63,209 nucleotides of DNA, filler included, from Collodictyon triciliatum (GCA_043381765.1; 5 parts of 5 records of this genome joined end to end with filler, not necessarily neighbours in it), one strand, 5' to 3'; positions 12,001 through 58,991 are shown, counted from the whole stretch's first letter. A program made the numbers and translations. The notes: generated by a model from the sequence alone, not told the origin.

Positions 12001-15000
12001 AAGGCTCATTAACGAGCTCTATGAGCAAAACGGGAAGCATCCTGTTGCAATTGCAAACAAAGAATACGAGATTCAGCAGCACAAAGACCTGATTCAAAGG
12101 TTGGAGAAGACCATTCATGAGCTTAATTCTCAAATTGAAGGACTTGAACTGGTATTTAGCCATCATTTGCAATCTTACAACCATATACATCATATCTGGA
12201 AGTGCTCACATAACCTCGCTGCACTTTGAATCGAATAAAGGGAAAAAAATATCTGGAAGTGCTCAAGAAAGCAATGATATGTTCAAATTAAACATTCTTA
12301 TCAACACATTCTTTTTTAAATCTACCAACCAGTGTCTGGATCAAAAGGGGGAAGAATGGGAAAGTCGATTTAATGAACAAAAGAAATTAGTCGAGGACAC
12401 CGAAAAGGCGTTGCAATACGAAAAAGAAGACTTGGAAAAGTGTCAGGAGGCGCTTAATGAAACACGAAAGACTCTTAAAGTACTTATTCATCGTCCAGTT
12501 TGTTTATCTTTTTTTTTTTTTTGATTTCTTCTCTTTTTCTCACCCAGAATTTTTGCCCAAAAATAAACTCTTTTTACGCAGTGTGGAAAATAAGTTACCC
12601 TTCTAACTTGCAATATTTAACTCAAATAATTCAGTCTCTCAATCCACAACAAGTGCAAAAGGATAAAGAAAACAACAGAAAAGAAATGGAAAAACTACAG
12701 AAAAAAATTGAAGAACTTGAAATCAAATTCAAACAGGTAATATATTTTTGTTTATTTTCATTATTCAATTCATTTGTTTGAGTTTAAGAATTACCAAAGA
12801 CAGTCTCTTACCTTACCTTACATGTCATATTGTCCAAAGGTTTCGCAAGAGAAACAAGCTTTAGCGGGAGAAAAAGTAACCAAAGAACAGGAATTCAAGA
12901 GTTTGGAGAAGAAACATAAAATGGTCGAGAGTCAGGTTACCTGTTCAATATACAAAAAATAATAATATCTAAACAATCGATAACTAATATATTTGATAGA
13001 AGAACTTATCCCCTGTAAGATTGTTGACATGAGCATTATTTGTAGTTAGAGAAACTGAAGGCTGCAGATACCAAGGCCAAAGACCAAACAAAAAAAATTG
13101 AAATACTCTCTAAAAAAACTGATGAGCTCAATCAACAAGTTGACAAACTCAGGGAAGACCTCGCAAAAAAGACACAGCAGTATGAAACAGTAAGAAAATA
13201 GCGATTTCTGTCATATTCAGTAAACTTCATCTAAATATGACTACATAAAAGTCTGGCATCATCAATCACAAGAATTAACATTCTGTTACATAAATTAGCT
13301 ATCATCAGACCATGACAACCTAAGAGGCTCTCTTTCAAGTTCTGAGCAAAAGGTTGTGGAGTTACAAACATCTCTAGCTGATAAAATTGAGAAATTGGAG
13401 GTTAGCATGAATGAATCCGCTGCAAAGACAGAGCAATTAAATGATTCCTCATCCAAGATAGAGCACCTTCAGACAGAACTTGAGAATATAAAATCTGTGT
13501 ACGAAAGAATAGCCCTCTCATTCCATGAATCCCAAAAGAGAAATGAAGAGCTATTGCTGGAAAATGCAAAGTTTAGGGAAAGTGAAATTGCATCAACTGC
13601 CCTTGTTGCCAGGTTGGAATCAGATATAAGTTCTTTAAAGTAAGTTCTTTTCTTGGTTTGGTTGATTGATCTTCCAACATATATGTGCGTTTAGCTTATT
13701 GAAAATATTTTTTGTCAAATGCTCGGCCGAATCATAAAGTTCCACAATTAATTGGCTTTCATACTTTCTGAGAAATAACCCTCTATTTTTCTCCTAAATC
13801 TAGAGCCGAGTCTTCCAGGGCTTTAGATAACTTGAAGGGCGAGTATGACAGATTGAACTCTGAAATCATGACTACTAGGAACGAGTTTGAGCAGCTTAGA
13901 GTTCAAAAAATGCAAGAAGAGGACGGATTCAAGAGCAAAATCACATCCTTGGAAGAGATTGTCAGCACAAAGTCTATGATTGCAAAATCAATGGAAAATG
14001 TGCGTGCATTAGTCCGATGTGGATGCTACCTGAATACATGCAAAATGAGACTAATTTTTTTGAATCTCGCTTTTTTTCTTATTCCAGATAATCTATATGT
14101 AATTAGTATCAGAATGAAAAAAAAATAGCTTATTATATGCCCTGTGTTTTCATCTTTTGATGATTTTGCGTATAGGAAATAATCGCTCTGAAAAGCCAAA
14201 ATGAGACTCATGAAGGTAACATCGACAAGCTCAAAAAGGATAACTCCTTGTTGTGTGAAAATATTACAAGTCTGGGGAATCAAATGAAGTCGACCGAGTA
14301 AGAATGGCACAATATGAACCCAAAGAAATGTTTTGCATTTCGCAACATATTCACTCAAATATTTTGAGAAATCATAATTGGGCATAGTTTTAATGCTTGT
14401 ATTACTATCTCAGAACTTTGTACAAAGAAAAGTTGGCGACTGCCGAACGAATAGCATGTGAAAGAAACGACGAGATCGAATACCTTAGAAAGCAATCGGA
14501 AGAGATAGAACGGTCTTCCAAGTTGAATGCAGCGCAACTGTTCAAGGAATTAGAGCAAGAGAGATGCTCAGTGCAGTCCTACATCGAGGTATGACAATTA
14601 TATAAGAATTTACATGCATATGTATGTACAATAGAGAAATTCATTTATTTATTTATTTTTGCATACCCCTATGATTAATGAAGGTGCATTATGTTCGTTA
14701 CAACAGAGATTCGCGGGGCTTAATGAAACGATCATGGTCATTCGCGAAGAGAATAGTGAATTGAAGAGAGCCAAAGAGTTGAATGAAGAGACCATAGCAT
14801 CATTGAAGATTGAGAAAACTGAAATGACAGAAACAACCCGCAGGTATACCCTCGAGAAAAGCGCATCGGAACAGACGATGGCTTCTCTCAGACAAGAAAT
14901 ATCCAGCATATCCGAAGAACTGAAGCGAATGGAAGGAACAAACAAAAAGCTTACCTCACAAATACAAAATTTGGATGGAGTTGTCCAGTCCTTGGAAAAG

Positions 15001-17071
15001 GAAATAGAAAAACTAAAGGCTCTAACACGGCAAATGGAGGCAAACACTGAAGCTAAAACTCGAGAGGTGTCTATTACACAAGAAAAGTATGAAAATATCA
15101 AGATTCAACTTGAAAATGCTCATGTGGAGTTGGAAAAGCTCCGAGAGAAAATCAAGTCTGATTATATTGTATCCTTATCTAAAGATGAACAAATCAAGGA
15201 ACTTGAAGAAATGGTACAGATTTACTCGAACAAAAGACTCAAAGGCCAAGCAAGAAGTCGAGGTCGCATACCATCTTCATTTTCTGAATCTTTTTCGAAC
15301 CCAGAAACTGTCCCTGATATCCCACATGAAAGCGACTCAGAGAGTGACTCTGGTAATCAACAAAAAAAGTACCAAGAACTGTTCTCACAATTTGAGCGAC
15401 AAACAAAAGAACTAAGTGAGAAAAATGAAAACATCCTCTCTCTTGAAAATGCTTCTAAACAACAAGCTACTGCAATTGTTGGCCTGAAAGATTTAAACAA
15501 CGGCCTTGAGGAAAAATTGGCTGTTAAAACAACTAAAATCACAAAACTTGAATGCGAGCTACAGTCTAGCAAGGACGTAATCAGTCAACTTCGCCAGGAA
15601 ATGGAGGAAAAAGAATCAGTGTTTGAAGAACAAGGTGAAATGATTGCGCAGCTTCTTGAAAGCAATACTAAGCTAAAAGAATCGATCGAAAGCTCAAATA
15701 CTGCTATGCACAATTCCCTTCGAGACTCAACTAAGCAAGAGCTTAAATCCAACTCTACACAAACGACGGAGCTACCAACCGATCACCTTGCTCTGCAATT
15801 GGAAACAAAGCAAGAGGAAGTTGCCCAACTCAAGAAACTAACAGAAGTGCAAAAGGTGAAAATCAAAGAGTTTGATAATCTGGTTGAGACCAAGCAGAGA
15901 GAAATCAATAGACTAGAATTACAACTGTCCTCGAAAACAAGGACTAATGAAGAACCAACCATGTAAGTACTATAGAGGCATATATACCCACATATAATTA
16001 CTCCTCTCATTTATCTTCTATGGCACGATTATTGAAATGGATAGATGTTACATATTGTTTTATTATGACTTTCTCTGTTAATCACTTGCTTTTTTTAAAA
16101 TAAAACAAAACGCATAGAATAAAGAAATCACCAATAAATCAGGAGGTAAGATGAGAATATTAGTCTATCTTCTATATTGTTTATGCTCCGAATAATTTTG
16201 ACGAATATATATATATATGAACGCATGTATCGTCTATATTTTCTTACTAAATAATTGCATACAATATGATCTAGAATGAAAACGGAGTCGCTGAAGTTGA
16301 TAGGCTTAAAAAGCGTGTGAAAGAGCTCGTTGAAGAAAATATGAATGGCAAGGTACATCTCCACCGCGACGCAAAGCTACCAAAGTCGTCATCATACAAG
16401 ATACTCAATCGATTATCTCTGCTTCTTTACTATTTTTCTTTTCAAAATGCTCCTTTGATAAATCCTGTAAATCCACGCAGAGAACAAAGAGAAACTTGAT
16501 CGTCGCCAAACGCGAAAATGCTTTGTTATCTAATACGCTGAGGGTTTGTGAGCAAGTGTTGGAATCACCCTTTTTGAAGCCCCAAGGCCAGTCAACAACT
16601 AGTTTGAGATCGAACTACAGCGCCAACCCCAGGATGGACTCGGCTGCCAATCGACAGCAGGTGACAATGCGATGATATATGTCCAATCAATATTTATTAT
16701 ACTTGGGGATGTATTGCGGTTGGGACTTGTTTGTTATTAATATTTTGCTCTCTTTTTCTCGGTTCGTAGCAACCGCCAGAAAGCCCCCCAAAGGCCAGCG
16801 TTCTGCAATCGAAGCGATTGTCCTTTTGCGTTTTTGTAAGATTCTTTCTTTTCTCATCTCCATATTTAAATTGCTCACTATTTGCAACACTGTCGTTTCT
16901 CAATTAATAGCTATAAATATTTCTTTCATATTTTTTGTTTACTTTTTTGTTGTGCGCTCGATATCAGTTTCGATTTTGTAGCAGCAAGGCATTCAATGGC
17001 ATATATCCCTCGTCATACATTACTTTTGTCATATTTATTTATTATTTTTGTCATCGTGGTTTATGCAATGA
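6085..17071 (+). CDS. Kinesin-7/CENP-E-like motor with a very long coiled-coil stalk, many exons; 3' end uncertain
   Basis: Motor motifs lie across exons: VGIRVKPLN (6085-), [21 protein letters not shown] (P-loop, ~6731-6780), [32 protein letters not shown] (switch I), [10 protein letters not shown] (switch II, ~8052), [55 protein letters not shown]. Many E/K/Q-rich coiled-coil exons follow to ~16660. The last exons (16770-16835 and ~16982-17071) are tentative. Confidence 0.92.
6257..6352. repeat. (TCT)n microsatellite in kinesin intron 1
   Basis: Perfect trinucleotide run. It explains the poly-L/F/S ORFs in the track. Confidence 0.95.
8666..8719 (-). mobile_element. Micro-insertion copy A (22 bp) with 16-bp TSD, in a kinesin intron
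   Basis: TGTTCTTTGGCAATTT (8666-8681) + TTTCCCTTTATTCGATTCAAAG (8682-8703) + TGTTCTTTGGCAATTT (8704-8719). Confidence 0.85.
12192..12265 (+). mobile_element. Micro-insertion copy B (40 bp) with 17-bp TSD, in a kinesin intron
   Basis: ATATCTGGAAGTGCTCA (12192-12208) + CATAACCTCGCTGCA-CTTTGAATCGAATAAAGGGAAAAAA (12209-12248) + ATATCTGGAAGTGCTCA (12249-12265). Confidence 0.85.
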
Positions 17072-17460
17072 TATTATATGATTAAATATTCAATAAACCT
17101 TCTCTCTCTTATTACGTGGAAAACTATGCGTTGAATAGGAGGACAAGTAGCATGAAATACACGACAGTGCCTTTTCACCCCGCCAGAAACCCTTCGTCCT
17201 GTGTTTAGGCAATTGACTTGCCCCAACCTTGCCGACGAGCCTCATATGTTCATACTTAACAGGCACACACTGTTAAAATAAAATAAATAAATAAAAAAAA
17301 GATAAAGAAAAGAAAGAAAAAAGAAAGGACTCGGCAATTCAAGAACACACCGCAATACCTGCCCTCTATTCCTGAGTTGGGAGTCAGTCTTCATTCCCAA
17401 GAGGTGGTTTCTGCAGAGTTTATCAGCCGATGGACATCTTATGTATGGATGGAAAATGTA

Positions 17461-17485
17461 AAGATACGAATCGAATAAAGGGAAA
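17461..17485 (+). mobile_element. Micro-insertion copy C (degenerate, no clear TSD)
   Basis: AAGATACGAATCGAATAAAGGGAAA shares the core, and also the AAGATAC 5' extension of copy G. Confidence 0.6.
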
Positions 17486-17941
17486 TCTACACAACGCGTA
17501 ACTCAACCGGCGCCGCGAGCCAAGATACCTGAGAGGGGAGTAATTTCCAGATCTGGACATATTCTGCGCTTCTCTATTTTTCGCTAAAAGGGGCTAATAT
17601 TAGCGTCCATGCGTCTCGATCGATGTTTTGCATCACCCTCCGGTGTGATTTGTTCCGATCAAAGCAGCGGATTGGCAGCGAGACATACGGGCGAAAGAAA
17701 CAGAACGAAGCGTAATTGAGCGGGGAAAGACACACGAGACTTTGGCCTCTAGAGAAAATTGATTCGTAGCTCTTTCTTTTATGTTAATGAGTATGTCTTT
17801 GATCTGTTTATCATTTCTTTTTTCTTTCTTCTTCTTTCTTTTCTTTTTTCTTTTTTCTTTTTCTTTTTCTTTTTCTTTTTCTTTTTCTTTTTCTTTTTCT
17901 TTTTCTTTTTCTTTCTTCTTTCTTCTTTCTTCTTCTTCTTT

Positions 17942-18041
17942 NNNNNNNNNNNNNNNNNNNNNNNNNNNNNNNNNNNNNNNNNNNNTTAATTAATTAANNN
18001 NNNNNNNNNNNNNNNNNNNNNNNNNNNNNNNNNNNNNNNNN
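17942..18041. other. Artificial assembly linker N44-TTAATTAATTAA-N44
   Basis: An identical 100-bp cassette recurs at 35958-36057, 53951-54050 and 61198-61297. The 12-mer places stops in all six frames. Confidence 0.95.
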
Positions 18042-18775
18042 TATGTATGTATGTATGTATGTATGTATGTATGTATGTATGTATGTGTGTGTGTGTGTGG
18101 GGGGGGGGGGCGTTAATTATGTAAACAATATTGTAATGTCGTTTTTTTTTGACACATTTCAACTAAATGAGAATATATTACTTTATCCCGTTTTGACGAT
18201 TGGCGGTATTTATTCAGCAAACTCATTGTGGAATGACGACCTGGTGATTACCTCGAAACTTTGACCATACGCTTGGGCCGTCACAAATAAACTTTGACAC
18301 GCTCTGTGTGATGTTAGCAACTTGAAATCATTGGAATGTATGGAATACACAGAGGACTATTGAATATGTATTGGCAAGGTGTATAATTTTCTCAAAAAAA
18401 ATATATAATTCAAATGAATCCATGATTGTAAAAACAAAGACAAGGTGGGTTCTTTGGATTATATCGGATGACGCTTATTTTATCAACTGATCTTTTGAAC
18501 GAATTAAGACGAAGGATATTCAAAGGAAGGAAGGGGGTTTAGATTATATTTTTCAGTCCGATGTAGTTGTATGTGCCTTGGTTGAAAGCAATCACGCGTG
18601 TCGGATAAGCGTGCAGGCCGGCTTGGTATGGAAGCTGGATTCATGGTTCATCGACGTCAGGCTGATGGCACCGATGGTAGTATTGCATCTTAAATTCTTC
18701 CTCTACTAGACGGAGTATAGCAATTAAAAGATTAACAAACCTAGTGCACCTGTATCCAAGGTCTCACCACTTTTG

Positions 18776-20030
18776 TCACAAAGACTGTGTAGTGGCGGAG
18801 GCTGCCAGGAAAGACCCAACAGTCTGTTTTTTTAAAGCAAGGTGTATGCATATTTTGAGGATTAAAAGAACTTTCATGGGTATATTTTTAGCGCTGTTTA
18901 AGTCCTTTGCCAAGAATACACTTTGTTTGCTTTCTGACCGATTGCATTCTTTGCATATGAGACATCTATACATTTTTTTGAATTTCCTTTCAGTATTATA
19001 TATTCCAGTCCTTTTTTGCAGTTACAGCACATCTTGGAGGTTCTAAATTCATCTACACTAACTGGTTCAAAACTTTTGGACAGTATTATTCGTAATCCTC
19101 TTCCGATTGTTGCCATGAAATGCTTCATCGAAAATTTTCTGCTCCTGTCTCCATACCCCAGTACAACATCCTTGCCAAATGTCTTTTCGATTCCATCCAT
19201 AAACAACCGTTCACTTCTTTTTGTATTAACATACTGTCTCCATCTCATCTTTCGAAAAGTTATGTGTTCATAAAATCTGGATAATTCTATCTGGTATCAT
19301 GATTTCATAGATATATATTCTCGAAATTGTTCATAATCGATTGTGCGTGAATTATGTTTACTCAGTTCTGTATCTAAATCGATTAAAGATACTCTTGATA
19401 CCTCAAACTACTGATTCTCCTCAAAAGTCATGTGACCAAAAGAAATAGCACTTTGTAAACCTGTTGCCATGCATATCTCTGAAGCATTGTACTTTTCATT
19501 TCTTTTCTTTTTTTTTTTTCACACAAGAGTACTTTGTGATTTTTAAGAGATTTGCTATCATGTCTTGTTTGGTGTGCCGTGTAACGTGATTTCTTACCTG
19601 CCTCATCCACCATGTAAACCAAATAAACTTGCCTGCGTCCACTCCAACTATTTTTTGTCGCTAATAAAGATAACTGCTTTTCGAAAAGCTCATCTATATA
19701 AACATATTCTTGGGTTTTTTTGATTAAATAGGAATTTTGAATTTGAAATACCTTTCTTTTCAAATAATAATCACACCGCCAAGCTGTCTGTTTGTATCAT
19801 GTATATAAAAAATTGTAGTCTGTTTGATAAAAGACCCTCTTCTTCATTTCAAAGAAATTATCCCATAGTGTCCCTTTGCATCCTGATATATTCTTCATTA
19901 ATGATGATTTTCCATATAATACTGATAAATCTATCATACGTGCAGTATCTAGAGTAACATGACATGATGTAATGTCAGTTATTATAAAGGTTTCGCTGCA
20001 AAAAAGAATCATTTTCTTATTCATCGAGAT
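18776..20030 (-). pseudogene. Degenerate Fanzor (Fanzor1-like; eukaryotic TnpB-related RNA-guided RuvC nuclease)
   Basis: Joining frames on the minus strand gives ...HVTLDTARMIDL...LWDNFFEMKKRVF...YMIQTDSLAV*LLF...KIVGVDAGK (RuvC-I Asp 19637-19639) / LVYMVDEAGKKSRYTAHQTRHDS...DTELSKHNSRTIDYEQFREYISMKS*...FYEHITFRKMRWRQYVNTKRSE...FGKDVVLGYGD...VDEFRTSKMCCNC (RuvC-II Glu 19048-19050) / CLICKEC...KDLNSAKNI (RuvC-III Asp 18902-18904). Contains several frameshifts, two in-frame stops and an ~110-bp interruption near 19390-19495. Confidence 0.85.
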
Positions 20031-20361
20031 ATCTTTTTTAATTGCTCCTCTCAACTCTGCCACCCCAGCGCGATGACCACGTTCATTCACATTTCGTGGT
20101 GTGGAATGGATAAACCTAGGAAATTACCACCGTCCTGACCCACAAACAAACCCTGCAATGTCTTTGTTCATTCAATCTAAAGATGATAGTATTCTGTCTT
20201 ATTTTGTCCAAGAGCGGAGGCTTCGTCCAGGTGATTTCGTGCTGCGCAAGTCTGGAGAGAAGCGTTGTGTTTGTGGGGTATTCCACAGATGTTTTATTTT
20301 TATTTCGAAAGAGACCCCCTTCAGCAAATATTGGAGCGCAGAACCAGTCATGACAAAAGTA

Positions 20362-20466
20362 TCAGGACAGTGCAACTTTCATTCCAGTCAGATGCACAAG
20401 CCAAGCATCGCGCTCGGACTCTGTCTTGGTCTACGGGGAAACGAGCGTAATAAATAAATAAACAAA

Positions 20467-20525
<59 letters not shown>

Positions 20526-23500
20526 AAATAAAAAATAAAAAATAAAAAAAAGACTTGTCAACTCAATGGAACAATAATTGGATGTCGATGCGACCGGATA
20601 GTATACTTCATTCTCTCTCTTTTAAATGCGTAAGAATAATAGTATTATGGCCTGTGTGTCTAGCTAGGGCTCTTTAAGCAATAAGAAACACACCTTGAAC
20701 TGGTACTGCTTCTTGGCAAACTTGATTGTAAACCCAAACATCTCATCCCCAGTCTCCCATTCACTCCCCTGTTGAGGCACAACAGATCAGTTAAGAGGGC
20801 GGGAAAGGTAACATGCATAAATATGACAGTAGATTACATGTGCGGTTGCAAGGGAGAAAAAGGGTGCGTGGACACGATACCTGAAAGTCGCCCTCGATGG
20901 GGATTGTACCGCTGGAAACACGCATAGTACCGTCCAGATAGCGGATAAGGACACGGGCATCCTTGTCGAGGACAAAGAAGCGGCGCTCCCAGGACTTGTA
21001 GAATGCGGTGTGCCTGTACATCATGATGCCGGTCATTGCGCGCTGGTTCGGCTGGGAGGTGGGCAAGACGGGGACCAGGGCTGGGGAGGAGAGGAAGATG
21101 GAGGACTCGTCTGTCATGGCAAAGCACTGGGGGCAGAGCAGACGCACGGTGCCATCCTGGAAGCGCTTGGGCTGCAGATGGTTGCGCCATTGCCCGGTGG
21201 GGTCGAGCGCATCCACCACCCGAGCAAACTCCTGCGTGCGGTGGTGGCGATGGACGGCGCCGTGGCTGCCCTTCTTGCCAAACCACTGGACCATCTCGGC
21301 CGCCTCGATGCCTTGGCTGTCAGCCGTGAGCGCAGAGACGTTGGCCTGCGGCTTCCACAGTTTCAGGAAGTAGTGCAGGATCTTGCGGTTGGCCAGGATC
21401 TGCTGCGCCGTCACGTGGAGCGACAGCCCGTCCACCCGGTGCGGCTCCCCAAGCGACTCGCAATGCATCTGGAACAGCAGTGCGTTTGCCGAAAACACGG
21501 GCGCCGTTGCCAGCGACGACGACAGCGACAGCGGCGAAGGCATCGACGGCGACGGCGACGCCGCTGCCATGTGCGAGGCGGACAGTGAGGCCGATAGCAC
21601 GCTCCTCACTGGCCGGGGAGACGACGAGGCTGCTGCTGCTGCTGAGCCCAGGGTCGGGAGTGCCTTCGTGGGTGTGGAGAACGGCGATGCGGCCGACACT
21701 GAGCTTCTGGGCGAGGCCATCGGCGATGCGCTGGACGACGGCACGGCTGTCCTCCCTGCGGCCTCCTCCGAGCACGGCTCGATGGAAAGAAGGTCGGGCA
21801 CAAACAAGGCGTCTGCCGCCAAAGTATGCCTCGATGTGGAGATGACCTTGCCTTCCGTCCACTCCTCCAGTGTGTATCGCTCTTGCTCCTTCAGGCACGT
21901 GACCCGCCCTTCCTCGTCCACGTCCACGTTGTCCATGGCGATGCGTCCGCAGCACTCGAACGCCGGCTGCCGCTGCGAGCAGAATGGGCAGAGAATCGCC
22001 TTGCTTTCGATGGTGTAGCCGTCATATCGCTCCAGCTTCTTTGTGATGATGTCGAGTAGGTGCTTCATGCAGTCCAAGGCCGGGTACTTTTCGTTCAGGA
22101 CCCGCACAGAGACAAACACCTTGCGCTCGTCCTTGTGGTGGTGAAGCATGTATCGGTACGTCGGCTGCATCTGCGCTTTTTTCAAAGCACATATGGTGGA
22201 AACGACGTAGTTTGTGCTGTAAAACTCCCTTGTCTCAGCATCCTGGCCTCCTTTGAATCGTTGTGGCCCCATCGATCCGATGAGAGTCTGGAATGCAAAC
22301 CTGGGAAGCATGTTGAAGCGTAGTTCGCAATTGATAAAGGCCGGTACAGCCGCTGAAGGGTTCCACGACCACAAGTCTGGGTGGGGTGCCGCCTCATTCA
22401 GCAGGTAAGGGATGATTTCAAAGTTACCGTCGCTGCTGGGGAATGAGAGGTTGTAGAAGCGCATGATGTCAAACACCTCATCGGCCAGTCCAGGGAAGTT
22501 CTCGTCAAGGACGCCGCGGAAGTGCTCTGTGACATAGACTCCACTCACCCCGCGAATGTGGGGCGTCTTAAAAATAATGCGAAATATGCGAATTAGGAGC
22601 GCAGGGTGGCAGATAACCTTCTCTATAAATTCAGGCTTGCTAATCCAGACTACAGAGCCGATATCTCGGAGAATGGTAAGCGTGGTGTGTGCATGGAGGT
22701 CGCTCTTGAACATCGTCATGTAGCTTTCAAAATCCTTGAAAGACATTGTCGAGTTGGATTTCGTGCGAACCACTCCGTCCACAACCTGTATCATCCGGAA
22801 AAAGGACTCGGGATACTCAATATTGAGAGACGGTAGTTGAGAGACAACTTGGACGATCTTCTCTCGGACTAGAGGAATGTTATTCCCGTTTGCATTACTC
22901 ACGGTGATAAAGTCTACAAACTTGATGATGCTGCGCAGCGGGGCCAAGAGTTGCTTGATTGATTCTAATAAAGAGTCTCGGTCCTGCTCGCTCCACGAAA
23001 GACATTGATCGTTGTGGGTCCCCACAACTATCACACGGGCTCCTGGAGCTGCTGTGGCAATCACATCTGCCCATCTTTTCAAGGAGGAATGGTCGGAACG
23101 ATTCGACATGTTCCACACCAAGATGATGACCGCGCCAGTCGATATAAACAACTGTCCGAGACACTCGAACTTAGCAGACCCGCTAAAATCCCACATGGTC
23201 AAGGAGACACTTGACTGGCCCATCTTGACCACGAAAGGGTCTGGGTGGATGTCAATGTCCAGCGTGGTGGGCATCTGTGATGAGCAAGGCGATACAAAAA
23301 CTGACGACTTTGACAAAATCGACTTCATCAGTGTTGTCTTCCCTGAGCTGGGTTCTCCAACCAGAAGAACGCGACTCAGATTCAGGCCTCTTGTATTAAG
23401 TAAACCTTTCCTCAGATGCTCCATTATGTGTGATATTCCGTGCTCTGCTACAGATTTGAGAACAGGTTCTAAGGGGAGCTCTTGAATATCAAGAACTTCC

Positions 23501-25296
23501 AGCTTCTTCATGTTAAACATGGAGTATGGAAGGCTGGTAATCTAAAGGTACATATGTATTACTTTAAGTATGGTGATAATGGGAAATAAAAAGGATACAT
23601 ATATAAGAAGGGGATATTGGTACTATAAATTTGTATCAATGGGTAATAGGTATATTTTTAGATATTATGCAACATCACTGGGGATGGTTACGTGATTACG
23701 TAATTGAATAAAAAAAAACCTGGTTAACAGAAGCCCCACGAAGCTCGCGAGCACATCCCAAAATGAGGCGTCTAACATTAGTGAGCATACCGATACCTTC
23801 AGGTATTTGGATAAGCTAATGAATCAATAGTTGAGAAAATTAATAGCATAAATGATTGAGAGTATGATGGTACTCTGTATTCACAATGCTGATATTTAAT
23901 AGGTGAATACTTACGTTATTCGAGTGCAGATTTAGATGAACGAGGTTGGTCAACTGACTGATGCTCAATGGAAGACTAGAGAGCTAATCGTTATTGTGAT
24001 TAATTTTCTTTTTTTTTTTTAAAAAAAAAAAAAAAGGTACTTGATACAGCTCCGAGCAAATAATTTGAGTTGAAAGAAGCTGAGAGTGATTCTAACCACG
24101 AACATTGTTGTTGTTGATATGGAATGTATTCAGGAGATACAGCTTCCCAAACGACCAAGGTAGCGAGGACACCTGCATGGTTGAGGGTAGTTATTAACAA
24201 AGCATTTGGAGCTTCGGAAAAATTTGTGAATATATCATGATATAATAAACAGTCTGACTTTTAAATTTGAGTATTTGATTTGATTATGTGTAATGCAATA
24301 TTTGGTGTGTGGGCGAGATGCTACCTTGTTCTTGCTCATGTGGAGTATCTGAAGATTGGTTAGCTGACCGATCCAGTCAGGCACAGAAATTAGCTAGTGA
24401 AGGAGGGGAGATTGGAAAGAAAGAAAAGAGGAAGTTTCATTCAATTACAAAGGCCTGTCTGTTTGACATGAATAAGTATTTTTTTTACCCCAATCCACGG
24501 AGAATGTGAGTGAACTCAGGATGTTAAGGCAGTTGTATAACGCGTTCAAATGGGACTTACCTGATTCTGGTTTACTCTGAGCACTTCCAGGTTCGTCAAA
24601 TAGGACAGGACGTCGGGGAGAGTAGTGAGCTGGATTATGTAGTGTTACACAAAATTCGTTTACATAAATTTTTCTTGGCTTTATTCTCAATGATATTTAT
24701 GTTCATTCTCTTCCACTACTTCAAGGATGGAAAAAAAAAGGCCCAGTCATCACTGGACAACGACGTTATGGGATCAAAGTACCAGGTTTTCATCCAGGAA
24801 GATGGTTTTCAGCTTGGTGACGAGGCTCATGTACGTAGGCAAGTACGACAACTAAAGAGAAACACACACACAAAATGAAAGGAATCAGTGAAGTTGGACA
24901 ATCTCTGCTGAGGCTAGAGCACAACCGCACAGCAGCATTAGCAAGATATTGACAGTTTATCATCATTCTTTCCGTGATATTTTTTGATTTCTCTCTCCAA
25001 GGGAAAAAAAAAGGAAATAAGTACACGGCTATTTTCAGAGTTTGGCCATTCCAGCAGCAAAGAATGCATAGGAACTCTGGGAGGGAACGGAAAGGAAACG
25101 TCACCTGATTCTTTGACAGGTTGATCTCGATGAGCCCCACAACATTCTGCAGACACTCTGGGAGGATGACGATTTGTTTCCAGCTGCAGTCGAGGAAGGT
25201 GGCAGTCTCCACTTCCTTGGCGGTCTTGCAAACGTTCAGGATTCCGTCGTCGCAGCGACTGGGCTTGAGTTTCAGAAGCTCCGAGAAGTCGGTCAT
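20362..25296 (-). CDS. ROCO protein: LRR - Roc GTPase - COR - Ser/Pro-rich linker - C-terminal PH domain (~1145 aa, 10 exons)
   Basis: Exons 25105-25296, 24783-24851, 24561-24629, 24325-24393, 24104-24172, 23915-23983, 23720-23815, 20881-23541, 20694-20768 and 20362-20430, all GT-AG and phase 0. Motifs: LRRs (e.g. LTTLPDVLSYLTNLEVLRVNQNQ), G1 LLVGEPSSGKTTL, G2 PTT, G3 WDFSG, G4 VGTHND, COR-like helices with CPFC, and PH KSWERRFFVL...FKTKTESERDAWL. Confidence 0.9.
20451..20525. repeat. (AAAT)n microsatellite in the last ROCO intron
   Basis: Directly visible. Confidence 0.9.
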
Positions 25297-28805: not shown

Positions 28806-29455
28806 TCATACTTTTCTCGGTCGTTATCCTTCGCTTCTCACACAGCGCATTTTGTTGGCTGGCTCTTTTGTGATGTTGTGCTTTTGTTATGCGGGGGCTG
28901 TGTGACTAGGAAACTATGCCTGGGCTGAAGATCCCTTCGTTGTTATAGTTGTCCCTCTATTTCCCTTGTCATATGGTATCTAATTCTTTTTTATTTTTAT
29001 TTTGTTTGTGTTTTTTTTTTTTTCGCCTCCTGGTGTTTACATTTCGTGGCTAAGTGCTGAGCTGATCGTTGAGCATAGATCATTGATCATCACCGCAAGC
29101 AGCCAAACCCGAAGCCGATGGAACCCACGAAGGAGGCCAATGCACAAAAAGAAACGGGCACTTTCATCAGTAATGTACACTACGAACTCATGCCTCTGTG
29201 TTATTCCAGCATGCAATAGATTTACGTGATACGCTCTTTCGCACACTTAAGAACCATGTTTTTCTATTTGGAGTAAAATAAAAATATAAAAAAAAAATAT
29301 TGGTTCCTTCCGAAGGGTCATATATGAGTAAAACAAAACAAAACTAAACTAAACTAAACAAAACAAAACAAAACAAAACAAAGACAAAGACAAAGACAGA
29401 CCGTTCAATGGAAATATGATTTTGCTCCAAATTGTACTCCACCTCTTGTATTCAT

Positions 29456-32400
29456 ATGAATCATACGATAGATGAACAATCACACGAGAGGAAGATCAGT
29501 TCTGTGAAGAGCAACGACTACCAATACTCCCAGGCCTCGTGGCCTGATCCTATCAGTAACAATTACTGTCGCCCTGTTGTCGATGACGTTTCCCGACTGA
29601 ATGCAACACAGGTGGAGCGTATCTTCAATGTGAGAACGAAGGAGGACATTCAAAATGTCCTGGCCCTTGCTCGTGAGAGTAAACGCAGCGTTTCCATCCG
29701 CGGCACACAACACAGCATGGGGGGACATTCTATCGCGCCCGGGGGTTTTGTCATTGACATGAAACTCTACTGCGCAATGACTTACAACCATGTATCAAAA
29801 ACAGTGACTTCGGGTACTGGGGCGCAATGGTCCCATCTTATAAAGTACCTTAATCAATTTGGCATGTCGCCAAGGACAATGCAAAGCTACTCGAGCTTTT
29901 CGGTCGGTGGAACGGTGAGCGTAAACGCTCATGGGATAACAACAGACTACAGCTTGGTTGAGAGTGTCATCTCATTTAATCTGATCATGTATGATGGTAA
30001 GGAGGTTTTTTGCACCAGAGATTCTGAAAACCCTGACGCCAGAAAGCTCTTTGGATTGGCCATTGGTGGATTCGGCCTTTTTGGAGTCATCACTGATGTA
30101 ATTGTATTACATTATATTCATACTAAACAAATAAAGGAAAACATATTAGTATTAAACAAAAAAAAATTAAATACTCAAAGAACACTCACTTCAAATTCTC
30201 ATAATGGGTGATCATATATCGCTTATTTCTAATGATGGTTGGTTTACGGTGCTTTTGTACCTTGAAATTATTCATGTTCCCCCTGCCTCCTATGAACTGG
30301 GAAAAATCCCTCAATTTTATTGTCGCAATATTTATTTGATTTATTTGATGTCTTTTTCTTTTCTTTTCTTTTCTTTTCTTTTCTTTTCTTTTCTTTTCTT
30401 TTCTTTTCTTTTCTTTTCTTTATCCTTTATTCCTTTTTCTTTATTCCTTATTCTTTATTCTTTTCTAGAATTTTTTTTTTTAAAAAAAAACATTAATACC
30501 TACAAATCTCAGTAGATATATCTTAATTGAATATCTTTTAGATAACTATGAAAGTCGACGAAAATCATCGACTTAGTCTAGACAATATTGTTGTCAGCAC
30601 TCGAGAGTTTCCCATGTTTTTCGATAAAATAATGGAGTGCGACCGAGATAAAGGTGGTAATGTGGATATAAAGTTGTCCAGGTTAGATATCACATCCATG
30701 GATTCCGTGACCATCTACATTTTCAAAAAGATATCAACTCAACCCACCATCTCTGATATGGATCTAAAACCGCGCGAAATGTCTAAAGCATCACAGCTTC
30801 TCTACAAATGGCTCGCGCCAACTATGCAGGAGCTACGCTTTTCTATCGAGCGATCGTCCGGAGCAGCACTTGATTGGAATGAAAGTAGCAGCCGAAATGT
30901 ACTAATGTATGAAAGTGCGGTGCCGCTAGCCAAGGTGTACTCCCCTCTCATCGAATTGGATGATACATTCATCTTACAAGAATATTTCGTCCCAAAAAGC
31001 AGCTTTGTTCAATGGGTTGAGCTCTCCAAGGAGATATATAGAGATATAATGAAACATCCTCGTTTAAAATTACTAAATACTACAATCCGCTTCGTTCATC
31101 ATGACGCTGAGACAGCCTTGGCGTACTCATCTCGTCCTAATGGTATGTTTGCTTTTGTTCTCTACTACAGGCTCCCACGAACCAAAGAGGCTGAAAAAGA
31201 TTTGGAATCTTATCATATACGATTTGTGGAGGCCACTCTGAGCCTTGGCGGAACATTCTACCTTCCCTATCGCCATCATTACACAAGATACCAGATGGAG
31301 AAAGCGTATAACCTTAATGTTTTGGAAAATTTCTTTGCTTCGAAGGAAAGGTATGACCCTGACTGTTTATTTACCTCTCTTTGGTTCAACCAATATGGCC
31401 AGTATTATGTTTCAGAAGAATATAAATCCTTGATGACCTTCCGACAGTCAAGCGAAATTCATGGTTTGCGTGTGTACAACGAACACCACCAAATATCTAC
31501 TAGATATACAATCCCAATTGTATCTGAGCGTCGCTCTGATTCATATGCTCGACTTTTTTCAAACCCGGATATGCGTCGACAATTTGCAGAAGAGTTTTTA
31601 GTCAAAGTGTTTCACATCGAGAATCCAAACCTCCTTATGCAGGTGATATCGAAAGCTGTGTGGGACCCTCGAAACAAGAACGATATTGATGTATACTGCG
31701 CTATACAAACCTCTCTTACAAGGTTATTATTTCTTATTCATGCATATTACTTCAATAATGCTCATATGTGTATGTATGTATGTATGTATGTATGTATGTA
31801 TGTATGTATGTATGTATGTATGTATGTATGTATGTATGTATGTATGTATGTATGTATGTATGTATGTATGTATGTATGTATGTATTGTTTAAAGGAAACT
31901 TCTCAGCATACTCATAATCTACCTGAAACCCGGTTATGAATTGAACCTATGAACTCCAAATAACTAGTACAAATTATAGCACATCCCAGAGTCCTTTGAC
32001 TATGATAAAAAAGACCTGGAGACAAATCAAGCAACTTAGTGAGCAAAAGGAAGAAATAGCGAGAGAGACTGTTTCGATAATATCGAAATTGGGTAAAATG
32101 GGGCAATTACATGATTATGTATCCATCGGAGATAATGGAAAAATGGTTATCCCTTTAAAGGAAGCACTTAGCATGCGTGGTAAGGTTTGGATTCTGCACG
32201 ACTCAGAGCCTTCCAGTGCAGACGTATCAGCTATACTTGAAAGGGGAAGCCTGGATCCTATCGGGCAATTTGTATTCGTCGATTACAACAACATATGTGC
32301 CGCGCGATGGCCCATATCGGACGAAAGTGTCGACTTTGTGACAATTAATCAAGGGTTGCATCATTTGCCTCAATCCAGTTTGCCAGATTTCTTGGGAGAA

Positions 32401-35316
32401 GTCAAAAGAATTCTGAGACCTGGAGGTATTTTCATAGTTCGAGAACATAATGCGGAAAAAGGCCCCCAGAGTGAGGTAATGTTTTCTATGCATCTAATAT
32501 CGTTCCTTCTAATTCTCTCAAAGTGTAGTCGAATGTGGTACTGAATGATCAATAATAGTTGCATAGAATAGTGTAATGGCTTGTATATGATAAATCCTTT
32601 TCTTTCTTTCTTTTTTTTTTTTTAGCCAGGAGCGAACTCAAACGTATTGGACCTCATCCCCATGCTAGACTTGGCTCATAGCGTGTTCAACGCGGTCACT
32701 GGGGTCCCCATTCAACTTGAAAAAACAGAAATTCGAGCCTTTCGCTCAATACTTGAATGGAGGGATATTCTGCAAGGGCATGGATTTATCGACACTATGC
32801 TCTACGAAATACAAGCAAGTGACCCAACACTAGACGAAATGATGTGTTTCTACAAGCCCCCCTTCACTGACCGTCTGTTTGTTCACCAAGAAAAATATTC
32901 AAGTATCCTCCCGGAAGAAAATGGGGTGGACATTACCAAATTTGCTGTTCCTTCTATCTTGAACGATATTATATCCCCTATACCTGGAGCTGTCCTCCAC
33001 TTGGCCAAGCAAATATTGAAGATGATAATCGATTATATCCCAATTTTTTCAAAATATCTTTTTGATTATGTCAAATATATTTTTCCTCCGTCTGTTCATG
33101 ACCTTATGGCTGAAAATATTCGTAATACATCCTCTGAAGTTACATCATGGTTTCAGCGGTTAGGGCCTTTCCTGAATGAATCCAAGGTAGTCGGATGCAC
33201 TTCTCCTTCTCTTTTTCCATCTGAATTTCTCTTAGTTTACCCAGCGATTAAACGTAAGGCCAGTCTGGGAAAGGCCACAGCAGCAGAAACCGTGCTGATT
33301 TCATTCATCGAAGACATAAAAAAATCTCTCACATCGGAGCCAATCAGCCAAGCTTTCAAATGTGCCTCACCCGGGAATTCACAAACAATCGACACTGAAA
33401 AAGTATTACAAAAGATAACTTCCTTAGTGGATGCACTTCCAGGACTCAAGGGACCAAATGTTTTTGAAGAGCTCAATATACCTACAATAATCAGGAAAAT
33501 GTGGAAATCTGCACATGCAGCTGCCGTATCAGCCGATGCAGTGTACCAAAACTCTGAAAACACAGGATCCCCTGGGAGCCAAAATCATTTAATTTATGTC
33601 ACAAGGGCGTTGGTTGCCTATCTAGACATTTTTACTTGGAAGGAGCTTTCAAAAGTCCTGGATGTTATCATCAAAGAGAAGGCGTTTCCTCCTCCTTTGG
33701 AGGCAATTATCGAGAAAGCGTCGTGTTCTAGTAATGAGATATATGATAACAGTCCAGGCGGATTATGGGCTCGGGCATTAATATCCTTGTTAGGCTCAGA
33801 GCAAATACAATTAGGCCAATATTCCGGTCAAGCAAGATTTGTTGGCTTAGGGAAACTATATGACCTTTGGAAATTTTCTCAAGAGCGCAGGAAACGCGCC
33901 GTAAAATTGATTTCAGAATCTCAGAAGCACATGGATGAAGAGGCTCTCCAGTACGTTACAAGGATGGATACTGTCGAGGTAGTTATGAACGAACACGCCT
34001 TTCATGATATACATAATGTTCGAGGTATTAAATCTGCGACGTTTGGATATACAAGCCTGACTGTCAGTCCAGTTTGTGTCTTGAGCTTAGTAAGTAAATA
34101 CCTAAAAGATGGTACTTTGCATACATCACAAATCGCAACTCAAACTTTGGAAGAACATCGGAAAACTGTCGCTGTTGTCGAGGGTGTTCGTCGGTTTGTG
34201 GTATCAAAGACCAGCAAATTAAATATACAATATTTTCCCTTGACTGAAACAGACGAAAAATACCAAAAACATGCATCCGCTATTATTAAATATCTAACTG
34301 AGACCGGACAGCTGAATCAAAATCGAAAAGGACAAGGTCATTATAACTATTACAAATTACCCGAATGGATGCAGGTATGTGTGACCTCAAAGGCATTGAT
34401 TTACATTATTATTAATTTTTTTTTCCTTTATTCGATTCAAAGTACATTATTATTAAAAAAAAATTTTTTTAAAAAAAACAACTTAACTGGTTAATGTCAC
34501 TGAGTGTATGTCGCTTTTCTTTTCTTTTCTTCTTTTTTTGAAAACAAAACAAAACACCGACTAAATATTTTCTCCCACCAGGTTGAGATAATTCAAATAT
34601 TCGGAGAAAGCTTGGAGCACACACCATGGTACCGATTTCCCTTTTTCGATTTCATTAAAGTTTACTTCAAAGTTCTTTCTCAGATGGTAGGAACAGTGAG
34701 ATCAGAATATGGAGTTGGAAAAGCGGTTTTCAGTATGGCATTTGCTACTGACTTGATTCCTGGAATTGTAATGTCTATCCTTTTCGCTCAGATGAAGTTA
34801 TTATCAAGTCCTATAGCGTACTCATTAGGAAATGAATACCCTGAGGATGAAATGACGGAGCATATAGTAATTGCAGTTCATCAGTCCGAGCAAAATGATT
34901 TGAAAAAAATAGGCGGGAAAATCAGATCATTGAGGGAAGTTGCTCGTGGCCGAGGAATATACATCATGGAGGTGGACACGTTCAAGAATCTAACAACTGT
35001 TCTGAAGAGTATGGCCATTGCTGTTCCAAACGCCAGAATATTGGAAATCTCGAACCATCAGAAGATTCATATCAAAGTGGTTCTCCCACGCTCCGCCGAT
35101 ACGGAAGAGAAGGAGCAGAAACTTGTTGAGAGAATCAAACAATACCCGGGGTGTGCTCTCGTTTTATCGTTCCGTTACCCTGTCGACGGAACACCAGCCC
35201 AGAAGTCGCCCCTTTGCCTTTCCCTCACCGTGCAAGTACCTTGTCTGCTTCATTTTGTCAAGGAGTGTCACAGTTCTGGCGTTGGTGTTGCGCAGATATA
35301 TGACTTTTTCTGCTGA
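29456..35316 (+). CDS. FAD-linked oxidase (PCMH/VAO fold, aldonolactone-oxidase-like) fused to a class I SAM-dependent methyltransferase-like domain and a long C-terminal region (~1600 aa); start uncertain
   Basis: Exons ~29456-30097, 30542-31722, ~31968-32475, 32626-34374 and 34582-35316. FAD motifs: SIRGTQHSMGGHS, SFSVGGTVSVNAHG, AIGGFGLFGVITD; oxidase cap ILQEYFVP...GGTFYLPY...KERYDPDCLF. MTase-like: YVSIGDNG...SVDFVTINQGLHHL...LGEVKRILRPGGIFIVREHN. Confidence 0.88.
31770..31885. repeat. (TATG)n microsatellite in an intron (also at ~18042-18085)
   Basis: Directly visible. Confidence 0.95.
34402..34456 (-). mobile_element. Micro-insertion copy F (27 bp) with 14-bp TSD, intronic
   Basis: TACATTATTATTAA (34402-34415) + TTTTTTTTTCCTTTATTCGATTCAAAG (34416-34442) + TACATTATTATTAA (34443-34456). 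Confidence 0.85.
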
Positions 35317-36225
35317 GCGACATACCCACGAATCAGCGGCTGTGTTGGAACTGTGTAACATCGGCGCTCGTAATCGCACAGCATGCGTAGTGATAGTTTC
35401 TACGGCCCCAACTTTGCCATATCTCTTAACTCAACCCCACCTGCTCCTCTTCTCGTGGTTAAAACATTCCTTGTGCTTCGCGCTCAAACCCAAAGTATCT
35501 TTCTTTTTTTTTCACTCGTTCTTTCCTCCTACAAGAAAATGAGAAGAAAGAGAAAGAAAGAATAGCCCTGGAACGTGTAAATTGCCACAATATTCTTTGT
35601 AGAAAGAGAAGATACAAGTGTATGTTGTCATCACATAGTTTGCACATCCTTTGCGAGTTTCAACACAGAAGCAAGCAAGTCACAGATTGCTATCCTTTTT
35701 TTTTTTTTTTGCGTGCGAATCTATCTTAAGAAATAAATAAAGAGAAGCATGACCGTTTTGGTGGATAGCTGGCCTCTTCTTTGTTCGAGGCAAGAAGGCA
35801 GCACCACTTACTCAGCCACTTTATCTTGCAAAAGAAAGCAGCCAAAGAGACCTGCCACGACCGAAGTGCAGCCGGCTGGCGTGGCGATGGAAATACCAAC
35901 CCAGGCTGAGGCACAGCCAACAGCCCAGCCAAAAAATGAAGATGGCAAAGTTCGCATNNNNNNNNNNNNNNNNNNNNNNNNNNNNNNNNNNNNNNNNNNN
36001 NTTAATTAATTAANNNNNNNNNNNNNNNNNNNNNNNNNNNNNNNNNNNNNNNNNNNNAACAAAAAAAAAAACAACAAAAAAACAACAAAAAAACAACAAA
36101 AAAACAACAAAAAAACAACAAAAAACAACAAAAAAACAACAAAAAAACAATAAAAAAACAATAAATAAAAAAAGGAAGCTGACTAGTTAAAATATGTAAG
36201 TTTATCTCACAAAAAGGATCGAACA

Positions 36226-53950: not shown

Positions 53951-54555
53951 NNNNNNNNNNNNNNNNNNNNNNNNNNNNNNNNNNNNNNNNNNNNTTAATT
54001 AATTAANNNNNNNNNNNNNNNNNNNNNNNNNNNNNNNNNNNNNNNNNNNNAAAAAAAAAAAACAAAAAACAAAAAACAAAAAACAAAAAACAAAAAACAA
54101 AAAACAAAAAACAAAAAACAAAAAACAAAAAACAAAAAACAAAAAACAAAACAAAATAGAGGCCTGGCTGGGCCAGACACAACAACTTGATGCATGGAGG
54201 CCATACAACGATAAGAAATTATAATGATAATAATAAATTAGGCCCGACAAAATAAGCGACGTTCTCCAAAACGTTTGTTCAGATCCACCGCCAACGGTAA
54301 CCAAACCAAAATCCCACAGGCTCAAATCTATCGATTTTCACTCTTCACCGCCTAACCAAGGAAACTTGTATCAAAGAATATGAGGAACGCAACAAGCAAC
54401 AACCCAGGAGGACTGTAGTATAAATCCGTTTGCATTTATTCGTTTTTGTAGAATGCAGACGCAGACAGTTGGGCAGGTGCTGGGAGCACAAGAGTGCGAT
54501 AGAGAAAGAGATGGGGAATACATATGGGGATACACAGCGAGTCAATGCTCCCGAG

Positions 54556-56994: not shown

Positions 56995-57757
56995 TCTATG
57001 CTACTACAAACACATATGCAATTAAAAAAAAATTATAATATGCATTTTGTTTGTTTTGTTCTTTTGATTTTTTCCTGCAATTTCGTGTAATTATTCATCT
57101 TGAGCCTCGGCCATTCAAGTGATAGCAACTGGTGCTTCGTACAGGAGGAGCTTGGAGAAGATATTATTGAAAGGGGAATAATCACGCAAATAACTTCATG
57201 ATAAATGTGGTCTGGTTTATGCTGTTAGTTCCTTGCTAGTAGACTGTGTTACTGGGGTATGCGCTGTGCTTGGGCTACAATCTCGCCTTTTAACATCTCT
57301 GCCACCTGCCAAGCCGGCAAGACAAAAACTATCAAGAGCGTGCCGTTCCACCCTTTGTTCGCCGCAAATTTCCGCGAAGAAATCGACAATTGCGAAGGAG
57401 AAATCACATTAAATATTATTTATTCTGTCATTTTACATAATATTTTATATACTAGTGTATTTTATGTCACACATGGAATAATAAATATGTATATATTATA
57501 TATTCCATAAATGTATAAAAGACATTAGCAACTAATCAAGAGAAGTGCACCGCATATTCAACAATACTGAACGAAAATGGATATAGATTCGTACATCAGC
57601 AAATAAGTTACCAGTATGGTACGGCATTCTTGCGCGGTGTGGAAGAAAAGTTGAAGCTGGTCGGAATGCGCCACTGTTTATCTAATCGATTTTCTTCATC
57701 ATTTCATCATTCAGTTCACAATTAACTTTCTAAAGCCGCTATTGATGCAAAAGAAAA

Positions 57758-57788
<31 letters not shown>

Positions 57789-58991
57789 CAAAACAAAACA
57801 AAACAAAACAAAACAAAACAAAACAAAACAAATAAATAAATTAGAATGCATTATTTTCCACAATAACAACAGAGGAACTTTTGCAAACTTTTCTCGCACT
57901 TTGAATGGCACGACCCTGTTGCACTTTGAATGGAACAAAGGTAAAAAAAAGGTTGTGCAGATTTGAATGGGCCTTTGTAGTTATATCGACACAACACGGA
58001 CAAGTTGACAGGGGATTTGATGGGCGGGGCAATCACGGCGATTTTAATTGGCCTCGTCTACAGCCCTTCGATTTCGCCTGGAATATGACCAATTAGTACG
58101 CCATAAAAGGGATGAAGAAGCATGTTCGTGACCAAATCGATCAAAACCTGCTTGATCAAATCAGAGACACGGCCAGATCAAAATCAAAGAAAGCTGGAGT
58201 CTGCAAGGCAGCAACAAACACCTCTTGGACAGGTGGCTCCAGCATGTCGACATCTGNNNNNNNNNNNNNNNNNNNNNNNNNNNNNNNNNNNNNNNNNNNN
58301 NNNNNNNNNNNNNNNNNNNNNNNNNNNNNNNNNNNNNNNNNNNNNNNNNNNNNNNNNNNNNNNNNNNNNNNNNNNNNNNNNNNNNNNNNNNNNNNNNNNN
58401 NNNNNNNNNNNNNNNNNNNNNNNNNNNNNNNNNNNNNNNNNNNNNNNNNNNNNNNNNNNNNNNNNNNNNNNNNNNNNNNNNNNNNNNNNNNNNNNNNNNN
58501 NNNNNNNNNNNNNNNNNNNNNNNNNNNNNNNNNNNNNNNNNNNNNNNNNNNNNNNNNNNNNNNNNNNNNNNNNNNNNNNNNNNNNNNNNNNNNNNNNNNN
58601 NNNNNNNNNNNNNNNNNNNNNNNNNNNNNNNNNNNNNNNNNNNNNNNNNNNNNNNNNNNNNNNNNNNNNNNNNNNNNNNNNNNNNNNNNNNNNNNNNNNN
58701 NNNNNNNNNNNNNNNNNNNNNNNNNNNNNNNNNNNNNNNNNNNNNNNNNNNNNNNNNNNNNNNNNNNNNNNNNNNNNNNNNNNNNNNNNNNNNNNNNNNN
58801 NNNNNNNNNNNNNNNNNNNNNNNNNNNNNNNNNNNNNNNNNNNNNNNNNNNNNNNNNNNNNNNNNNNNNNNNNNNNNNNNNNNNGAAAAAAGGCAGAAAA
58901 AACACCCGAGTGTTCCGATCTCTTATTTCTTCCAACCACAGCACACTCGCTTCGCCCAAAAAGCAGCCGCAGCTTGAAAGTGGAGGGCCCT

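Follow-up and report, generated by a model that had tools for sequence, protein, structure and literature searches.

A probable decayed Fanzor1 gene in nuclear DNA of Collodictyon triciliatum

We studied a DNA stretch of 63,209 nucleotides (nt), filler included, from the genome of Collodictyon triciliatum (GCA_043381765.1); this whole stretch, made of five parts joined end to end, is called here the window. Its minus-strand segment 19979..18776 is very probably the fossil of a gene for a Fanzor1 RNA-guided endonuclease, no longer functional, and an ordinary transposon fossil lying in nuclear eukaryote DNA. The segment (hereafter the relic) today encodes no nuclease and shows no sign of a guide RNA (see below).

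Extent and reading path of the relic

Six-frame translation of the window yielded 2852 pieces, and a profile of 57 full-length relatives searched against all of them gave five collinear minus-strand matches, with expectation values (E) of 2.1e-41, 2.5e-10, 2.4e-09, 2.7e-09 and 1.1e-07, which together span profile positions 250-595 of 649. Elsewhere in the window, the profile reached at best an E of 0.22 at an unrelated place, and neither this profile nor tblastn revealed a second Fanzor copy in the window. The profile positions, tblastn of full-length relatives and a frameshift-aware alignment to the closest intact relative, P0156 (see below), define the following feature:

18776..19979, minus strand: Fanzor1 pseudogene, C-terminal ~60% of the gene

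The pseudogene contains the end of the WED domain, the RuvC domain, the TNB zinc finger and the C-terminal tail, without a start codon and without the N-terminal REC/WED part. The lower limit of homology is the stop codon at 18776-18778, and the upper limit is 19979 according to the profile and tblastn, or 19964 according to the frameshift-aware alignment. The first-pass annotation had placed a decayed Fanzor gene at 18776..20030; its start was exact and its end lay ~50 nt past the detectable homology.

All the motifs named in that annotation were found on the minus strand in the order stated; they occupy three different frames, and stops interrupt them. From the N- to the C-terminus, the reading path starts in frame 2 with HVTLDTARMIDL ... 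YQTDYNF, passes to frame 1 with YMIQTDSLAV (which holds MIQTDSLAV), returns to frame 2 with EYVYIDELFEKQL, crosses to frame 0 for IVGVDAGKF and goes back to frame 2 with LVYMVDEAGKKSRYTAHQ. It then follows a 621-nt stretch in frame 1 that carries LSKHNSRTIDYEQFREY, FYEHITFRKMRWRQYVNTKRSE, GYGD and VDEFRTSKMCCNC, and ends in frame 0 with CLICKEC and KDLNSAKNI, followed by the stop codon.

Family assignment

The longest frame of the relic, 18898-19494, read through with TAG and TGA as X, gave a piece of 198 residues (P0001). Among 1.84 billion representative proteins, P0001 had 1492 relatives at E<=1e-3, 566 at E<=1e-10 and four at E<=1e-30; the full-length matches were mostly 600-700 residues long and P0001 aligned to their C-terminal third. 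A phmmer search of P0001 against all solved structures returned three distinct chains, all of them Fanzor1, from Parasitella (9cf0, E 6.8e-9), Spizellomyces (8gkh, E 1.6e-6) and Guillardia (9cer, E 1.6e-4), and no other chain at E<=1. The same three Fanzor1 structures were singled out by a second profile, A1, built from 16 full-length relatives and searched against the solved structures (E 5.3e-85 for Parasitella, 7.1e-82 for Spizellomyces and 2.6e-66 for Guillardia). The best non-Fanzor1 chain for A1 was LaTranC, with an E of 0.0054; chains of the TranC, Cas12m and TnpB types had E between 0.005 and 0.73, only over the ~65-residue zinc-ribbon part, and no Fanzor2 chain appeared at E<=10. Since it matches Fanzor1 chains and profiles, the stretch is Fanzor1-derived, in agreement with the Fanzor1 type proposed at first pass; a protein matching no Fanzor or TnpB profile would have spoken against that proposal, and what we found was a direct match to solved Fanzor1 structures.

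Derivation from a TnpB, Fanzor2 or IS607-type gene has to be considered, because the RuvC and zinc-ribbon core is common to TnpB, Fanzor2 and Fanzor1, and because the sole Fanzor-related Pfam match of the relic was to a generic Cas12f1-like TNB domain. We regard such a derivation as extremely improbable: significant E-values were obtained for Fanzor1 chains only, with P0001 as well as with A1, the other chains being matched only in the zinc ribbon, and the intact relative P0003 aligns with SpuFz1, the Fanzor1 of Spizellomyces punctatus, over residues 14-607. As for an IS607-type origin in particular, a Pfam search of the 55 open pieces (>=55 residues) in 13000-20790 showed no recombinase domain.

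Truncation, frameshifts and stop codons

The closest intact relative of the relic was P0156, a metagenome protein of 648 residues encoded on a 2610-nt contig, in which DPG, TDG and GDW are all present. In the frameshift-aware alignment, residues 255-642 of P0156 lie on 19964..18791 of the window, and identity extends to 233 of the 382 residues aligned (61%). Both carry the same C-terminal tail and, between RuvC-I and the SE motif, the same insert specific to the family; P0156 is intact, whereas the relic is front-truncated and frameshifted. The alignment placed six frameshifts near 19811, 19713, 19655, 19624, 19523 and 18981, positions that come from a simple alignment script and may be off by a few bases, most of all within the poly-A run at ~19520. 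Three in-frame stop codons were clear:

19771..19773, minus strand: in-frame TGA, opposite S318 of P0156
19408..19410, minus strand: in-frame TAG, a sense codon (Q, R, R, P, N) in 5/5 relatives covering the site
19297..19299, minus strand: in-frame TGA, R in P0036, P0023, P0157 and P0156 and K in P0002 (5/5 relatives covering the site)

A fourth stop, TGA at 19521, was ambiguous, as it lies within the poly-A indel. The TAG at 19410 and the TGA at 19299 arose secondarily, given that all the relatives covering these sites have sense codons there. With six frameshifts and three to four stops no nuclease can be made from the relic, and the decay by frameshifts and stops reported at first pass is thus confirmed. 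An alternative genetic code as the cause of the stops was rejected: TGA and TAG are both stops, the six frameshifts remain in any case, and a neighbouring frame of 916 codons (see below) is open in the standard code.

The N-terminal 254 residues, i.e., REC and the first part of WED, ~40% of the protein, had no counterpart anywhere in the window when profile positions 1-249 were considered, and tblastn of 75 full-length relatives gave no match upstream of the relic. The relic is 5'-truncated and lacks a start codon. Of the family columns in the part that is covered, the relic kept 17 of the 22 that are invariant and 13 of the 17 that are nearly so. Among the losses are hallmark positions, with the changes P365A (DPG to DAG), G314S (TDG to TDS), W523R (GDW to GDR), P534A and R603K; these losses fit relaxed constraint.

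Catalytic residues and zinc finger

The metal-binding residues of SpuFz1 are given as D383, N385, E541 and D606 by Saito et al. 2023 (PMC10432273). They were mapped onto the relic through the alignment of P0003 to chain 8gkh_P (fusion offset 394), where the corresponding positions are D777-P-N779 in IDPNK, E935 in LLDEYKTS and D1000 in NRDMLS. The sites found in the relic were the following:

19783..19791, minus strand: Fanzor1 WED motif TDG, here T-D-S (T312 and D313 kept, G314 changed to S)
19637..19639, minus strand: RuvC-I catalytic Asp codon (GAC) in VGVDAGKF, equivalent to SpuFz1 D383; DPG is here DAG
19048..19050, minus strand: alternative RuvC-II catalytic Glu codon (GAA) in VDEFRTSK, the invariant E555 of P0156, equivalent to SpuFz1 E541
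18944..19029, minus strand: TNB zinc-finger cysteines (CCNC ... CLICKEC); C562, C565 and C587 of P0156 kept
18902..18904, minus strand: RuvC-III catalytic Asp codon (GAC) in KDLNSAKNI, equivalent to SpuFz1 D606

The claim of the first-pass annotation that a D-E-D triad and a zinc finger are retained holds at the codon level, with a different choice of residues: the catalytic Glu is the E of VDEFRTSK and not that of RSE, and GYGD is not a catalytic position. A relocated RuvC glutamate has been described for Fanzors (PMC10530073) and termed "Ealt" (PMC10711439), a text that also names TDG as the Fanzor1 WED motif. GYGD, a G-x-GD stretch, would mark the place of the canonical TnpB Glu, a position at which Fanzor1 proteins have Gly or Pro.

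The codons lie in a broken frame, and the relic has no RuvC domain in one contiguous piece. The RuvC-I Asp is on an island of 10 codons flanked by the frameshifts near 19655 and 19624, in a frame different from that of its neighbours, and the single frameshift at ~18981 splits the CCNC half of the zinc finger from the CLICKEC half. In the RuvC-III motif RDxNxxxN, residues D604, N606 and N610 are kept and R603 is replaced by K.

Search for a guide RNA

In Fanzor1 genes the guide scaffold lies at the 3' end of the open reading frame (ORF), and this end is still present in the relic. The adjoining flank is the following feature:

18042..18775, minus strand: 3' flank, expected place of the guide-RNA scaffold and the right transposon end; nothing recognisable, and abutting a spacer of N

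The predicted fold of 241 nt around the ORF end (18690-18930) had a z of -0.99, and 27 of 200 shuffles folded as well or better. Rfam gave no match at the gathering threshold for the ORF 3' end and flank, where at E<=1 there was only a chance-level small nucleolar RNA match (E 0.62), and the inverted-repeat search of 16500-21500 found no right-end repeat pairing with the upstream side.

These results bear on the idea that the protein gene is dead and the locus still provides omega RNA that acts in trans with intact copies of Fanzor1. There is a precedent for it in S. punctatus, for which Saito et al. (PMC10432273) describe 134 ghost loci that have no ORF and keep their inverted repeats, and the region that should encode the scaffold has survived in the relic. 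Nevertheless, a fold no better than that of shuffles, the lack of an Rfam match and of a right-end repeat in the places searched, and the absence of any known intact partner in this genome make this idea very unlikely.

Other copies in metagenomes

ORF fragments from short public contigs, P0036, P0023 and P0079, were 71-78% identical to the relic. P0023 looks independently broken, since it shifts frame where the window stays in frame (a reading by eye). Contigs from four freshwater or lake metagenome runs also aligned on the relic stretch. A few of these pieces, 151-246 nt long, were near-identical (0-5 differences), and many more showed 80-95% likeness over 18500-19981; in run X3, for example, there were 110 pieces, five at >=99%, 20 at 95-99%, 43 at 90-95% and 42 below 90%. 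The metagenome pieces and the broken copies fit a family of repeats dispersed in the genome of this organism or of close relatives, the depth of the metagenomes giving no copy number. Contig coverage was absent over 18110-18343 and 20216-20420 and sparse left of 18500, and these holes are not read as element ends. Likewise, the loose ends of contigs at ~18750 and ~18520 reflect divergence and are not clean ends, because they are still partly like the window.

A contig scan of the metagenomes with P0001 gave no relative, and one with P0156 gave a single distant locus (L081, 21% identity) that was left unused in the analysis. In seven DNA sequencing runs only 5-9% of the sampled words were present. 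At 19740-19776, in two metagenome runs, a contig matched these 37 bases only, with six differences, and carried a loose end of CCCCAAAA repeats. Such repeats resemble spirotrich-ciliate telomeres, and we take the match to the window to be probably due to chance or unrelated.

Related elements in giant viruses

In a collection of viral contigs, 371 of 420 candidate stretches encoded relatives of the clade of the relic, and many of the contigs bearing them are named GVMAG. The best 80 loci (L001-L080) were 38-47% identical over nearly full length, and 81 intact ORFs in them match the family profile. Some of these loci have recognisable boundaries: L036 and L038 share 2.4 kilobases (kb) at 83% with inverted ends of 34 nt (e.g., L036:4512-6914), and L001 and L003 share 3.3 kb at 74% with inverted ends of 33 nt (e.g., L003:3627-6949). 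The L003 element, which adjoins an mRNA capping enzyme gene, has a Fanzor ORF and, on the opposite strand, a transposase of 343 residues with helix-turn-helix and DDE_3 domains (Pfam E 1.5e-15), both between the 33-nt inverted repeats. A homologue of this transposase lay inside 28 of the 80 viral loci. The DDE_3 transposase is of the Tc1/mariner/IS630-like kind. The giant-virus Fanzor1 elements look like transposons that were recently mobile and a source of candidate compact nucleases. Several viral bins carry two Fanzor1 copies at 80-89% identity.

A tree of 70 rows was computed with FastTree, a fast method, from the window, 49 metagenome proteins and 20 of the 80 viral loci; it is unrooted and came with long-branch warnings. 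In it the window grouped with P0156 and P0002 (support 98). This group was sister to the one with P0003, P0004 and L001-L003 (98), and both were inside a clade of 32 rows (96) that holds all 20 viral rows. The closeness of the viral rows is partly due to selection, because they were chosen as best matches to the clade.

The wealth of relatives in giant-virus contigs (371 of 420 candidate stretches, many of them GVMAG) and the place of the window beside the L001-L003 group, within the clade of all viral rows, might suggest that the relic was left behind by a giant virus whose genome became endogenised, and is not a copy of a host-resident transposon family. This seems improbable to us. None of the 55 open pieces beside the relic was virus-like by Pfam, the adjacent ORF encodes a Roc GTPase, and the 80-99% metagenome pieces, along with the broken copies P0023, P0036 and P0079, fit a dispersed repeat better than a single integration. 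Moreover, the tree evidence comes from a fast, unrooted method and from viral rows selected for similarity.

Proposed origin

The origin that we favour for the relic is as follows. As judged from assayed and solved Fanzor1 proteins, the parent gene would have encoded a protein of ~650 residues acting as an omega-RNA-guided double-strand DNA endonuclease. This ancestor would have had one RuvC site (the DPG Asp, the relocated Glu in DEF/YRTS and the RDxNxxxN Asp) and a Cys4 zinc finger, and the 3' end of its element would have been transcribed into the guide. By analogy with the closest intact clade, which is that of the giant-virus contigs, the gene would probably have been part of a cut-and-paste transposon with terminal inverted repeats and a DDE transposase (Tc1/mariner/IS630-like); a former transposon context of the relic is thus probable. 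The copy has lost its first ~254 codons, any promoter or start codon, the partner transposase and recognisable ends, and six frameshifts with three to four stops have gathered in it since.

Several observations weigh against this origin. The transposon context is drawn from relatives that are only 38-47% identical, and the relic itself has no recognisable boundary: the search of 16500-21500 for terminal inverted or direct repeats gave no candidates, only microsatellites and low-complexity pairs, and no target duplication was found in the window. When the DDE_3 transposase of L003 was searched in the window by tblastn, the best E was 5.2. In the 55 open pieces of 13000-20790 Pfam showed no transposase or recombinase domains, only sub-threshold matches of the coiled-coil type. 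These searches bear out the remark made at first pass that no transposase or terminal repeats are recognisable nearby. As to the protein itself, Pfam on the separate pieces of the relic gave PF07282, the Cas12f1-like TNB domain, at an E of 0.034, below the cut-off; the other matches of these pieces were three, also sub-threshold and of unrelated families. Several intact relatives are likewise below the PF07282 cut-off, and Pfam is a poor detector for the Fanzor1 family. The approximate positions of the frameshifts also count here, as does the state of the reading path: the three catalytic codons and all the zinc-finger cysteines checked are kept, at 61% identity to intact P0156, and therefore the decay is not extreme. 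Lastly, an intact sister copy may exist elsewhere in the genome.

Comparison with known Fanzor1 systems

SpuFz1 of Spizellomyces punctatus (PDB 8GKH, 9CEU-9CEZ) belongs to the same family: the read-through piece of the relic aligns to its RuvC/TNB part with the E of 1.6e-6 given above, and intact P0003 aligns to it over nearly full length (E 9.2e-37). The codons equivalent to its catalytic D383, E541 and D606 are kept in the relic, and its N385 is Gly in the relic's clade. S. punctatus likewise carries partial Fanzor genes besides the ghost loci without ORF, according to PMC10432273. SpuFz1 differs in having 30-nt inverted repeats and a CA/TAM context (TAM, target-adjacent motif), none of which was recognisable at the relic. 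The Fanzor1 proteins of Parasitella parasitica (9CF0-9CF3) and Guillardia theta (9CER-9CET) were the best and third direct PDB matches of the relic; both are intact and are characterised biochemically and structurally in a Cell 2024 report (PMC11423790), whereas the relic is a pseudogene.

The elements of the sister clade pair a Fanzor1 ORF with a DDE_3 transposase between 33-nt repeats, as the Mariner/Tc1-associated Fanzor1 elements do, of which Bao and Jurka reportedly gave the first description in 2013. In contrast, the relic has no transposase remnant or terminal repeats, and the sister elements belong to contigs of giant viruses rather than to a cellular genome. The association of Fanzor1 with Mariner/Tc1 transposons is stated in PMC10530073 and PMC10711439, and Fanzor1 genes, their transposon association, their presence in large DNA viruses and their partial or ghost copies are already in print (PMC10432273, PMC10530073, PMC10711439). 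The relic is an additional dead copy of this described element type. Dead Fanzor copies are to be expected from a transposon-borne family widespread in eukaryotes and large viruses, and a single one has little weight. What the relic does show is that a Fanzor1 element invaded this lineage at some time in the past. It also led to intact P0156, of 648 residues, and to a large, apparently mobile giant-virus clade of DDE_3 transposase and Fanzor1 elements, in which one could look for compact RNA-guided nucleases and for cases of virus-host transposon exchange.

A broader reading would join three parts: a dispersed Fanzor1 family in the host, traffic of the nuclease transposon between giant viruses and host, and an intact, active P0156-like member in the host or the viruses. 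Taken jointly we consider these possible though rather doubtful; if they were true, the intact P0156-like member would be a new programmable nuclease.

Surroundings of the relic

The surroundings are ordinary nuclear eukaryote DNA in the standard code. A frame of 916 codons at 20791-23541 (minus strand), open in that code, contains a Roc GTPase domain, and the relic lies ~0.8 kb downstream of it. In a protein atlas search this frame returned only generic ROCO/MFHAS1-like clusters. It includes an Ala/Ser/Pro-rich segment (~21000-22000) with 65% guanine plus cytosine (G+C), against ~37% in the rest of the window, and its end, read by eye, resembles the start of a PH-like domain. Should the Roc gene continue in downstream exons, the relic may be intronic.

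The relic region is flanked by microsatellites, (TATG)n at 18042-18101 and (AATA)n at 20440-20560. A spacer of N at 17942-18041 is 0.7 kb from the relic, and the sequence left of it is perhaps not truly adjacent. Four identical-looking spacers of this kind are present in the window (17942-18041, 35958-36057, 53951-54050 and 61198-61297), three of them ~18.0 kb apart; each is laid out as 44 N, 12 bases and 44 N, the 12 bases being TTAATTAATTAA in the first spacer, the sole one read. The spacers look like an artefact of record assembly or joining, so adjacency across them is unverified. Longer runs of N were found at 58257-58884, 59281-59313 and 61308-61406.

Other ORFs of the window encode RING plus NHL, FAD-binding and methyltransferase domains: a RING plus NHL-repeat protein lies at 54556-57000 (minus strand) and a gene region with FAD-binding-4 and methyltransferase domains at 29420-35316 (plus strand). 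An ORF of 443 residues with coiled coils was found at 14635-15966 (plus strand), and exons of a coatomer-alpha-like WD-repeat protein, split by introns and gaps, were read by eye at 58900-59933 (plus strand). The (TATG)n repeat also occurs at the end of the ORF at 30542-31939.

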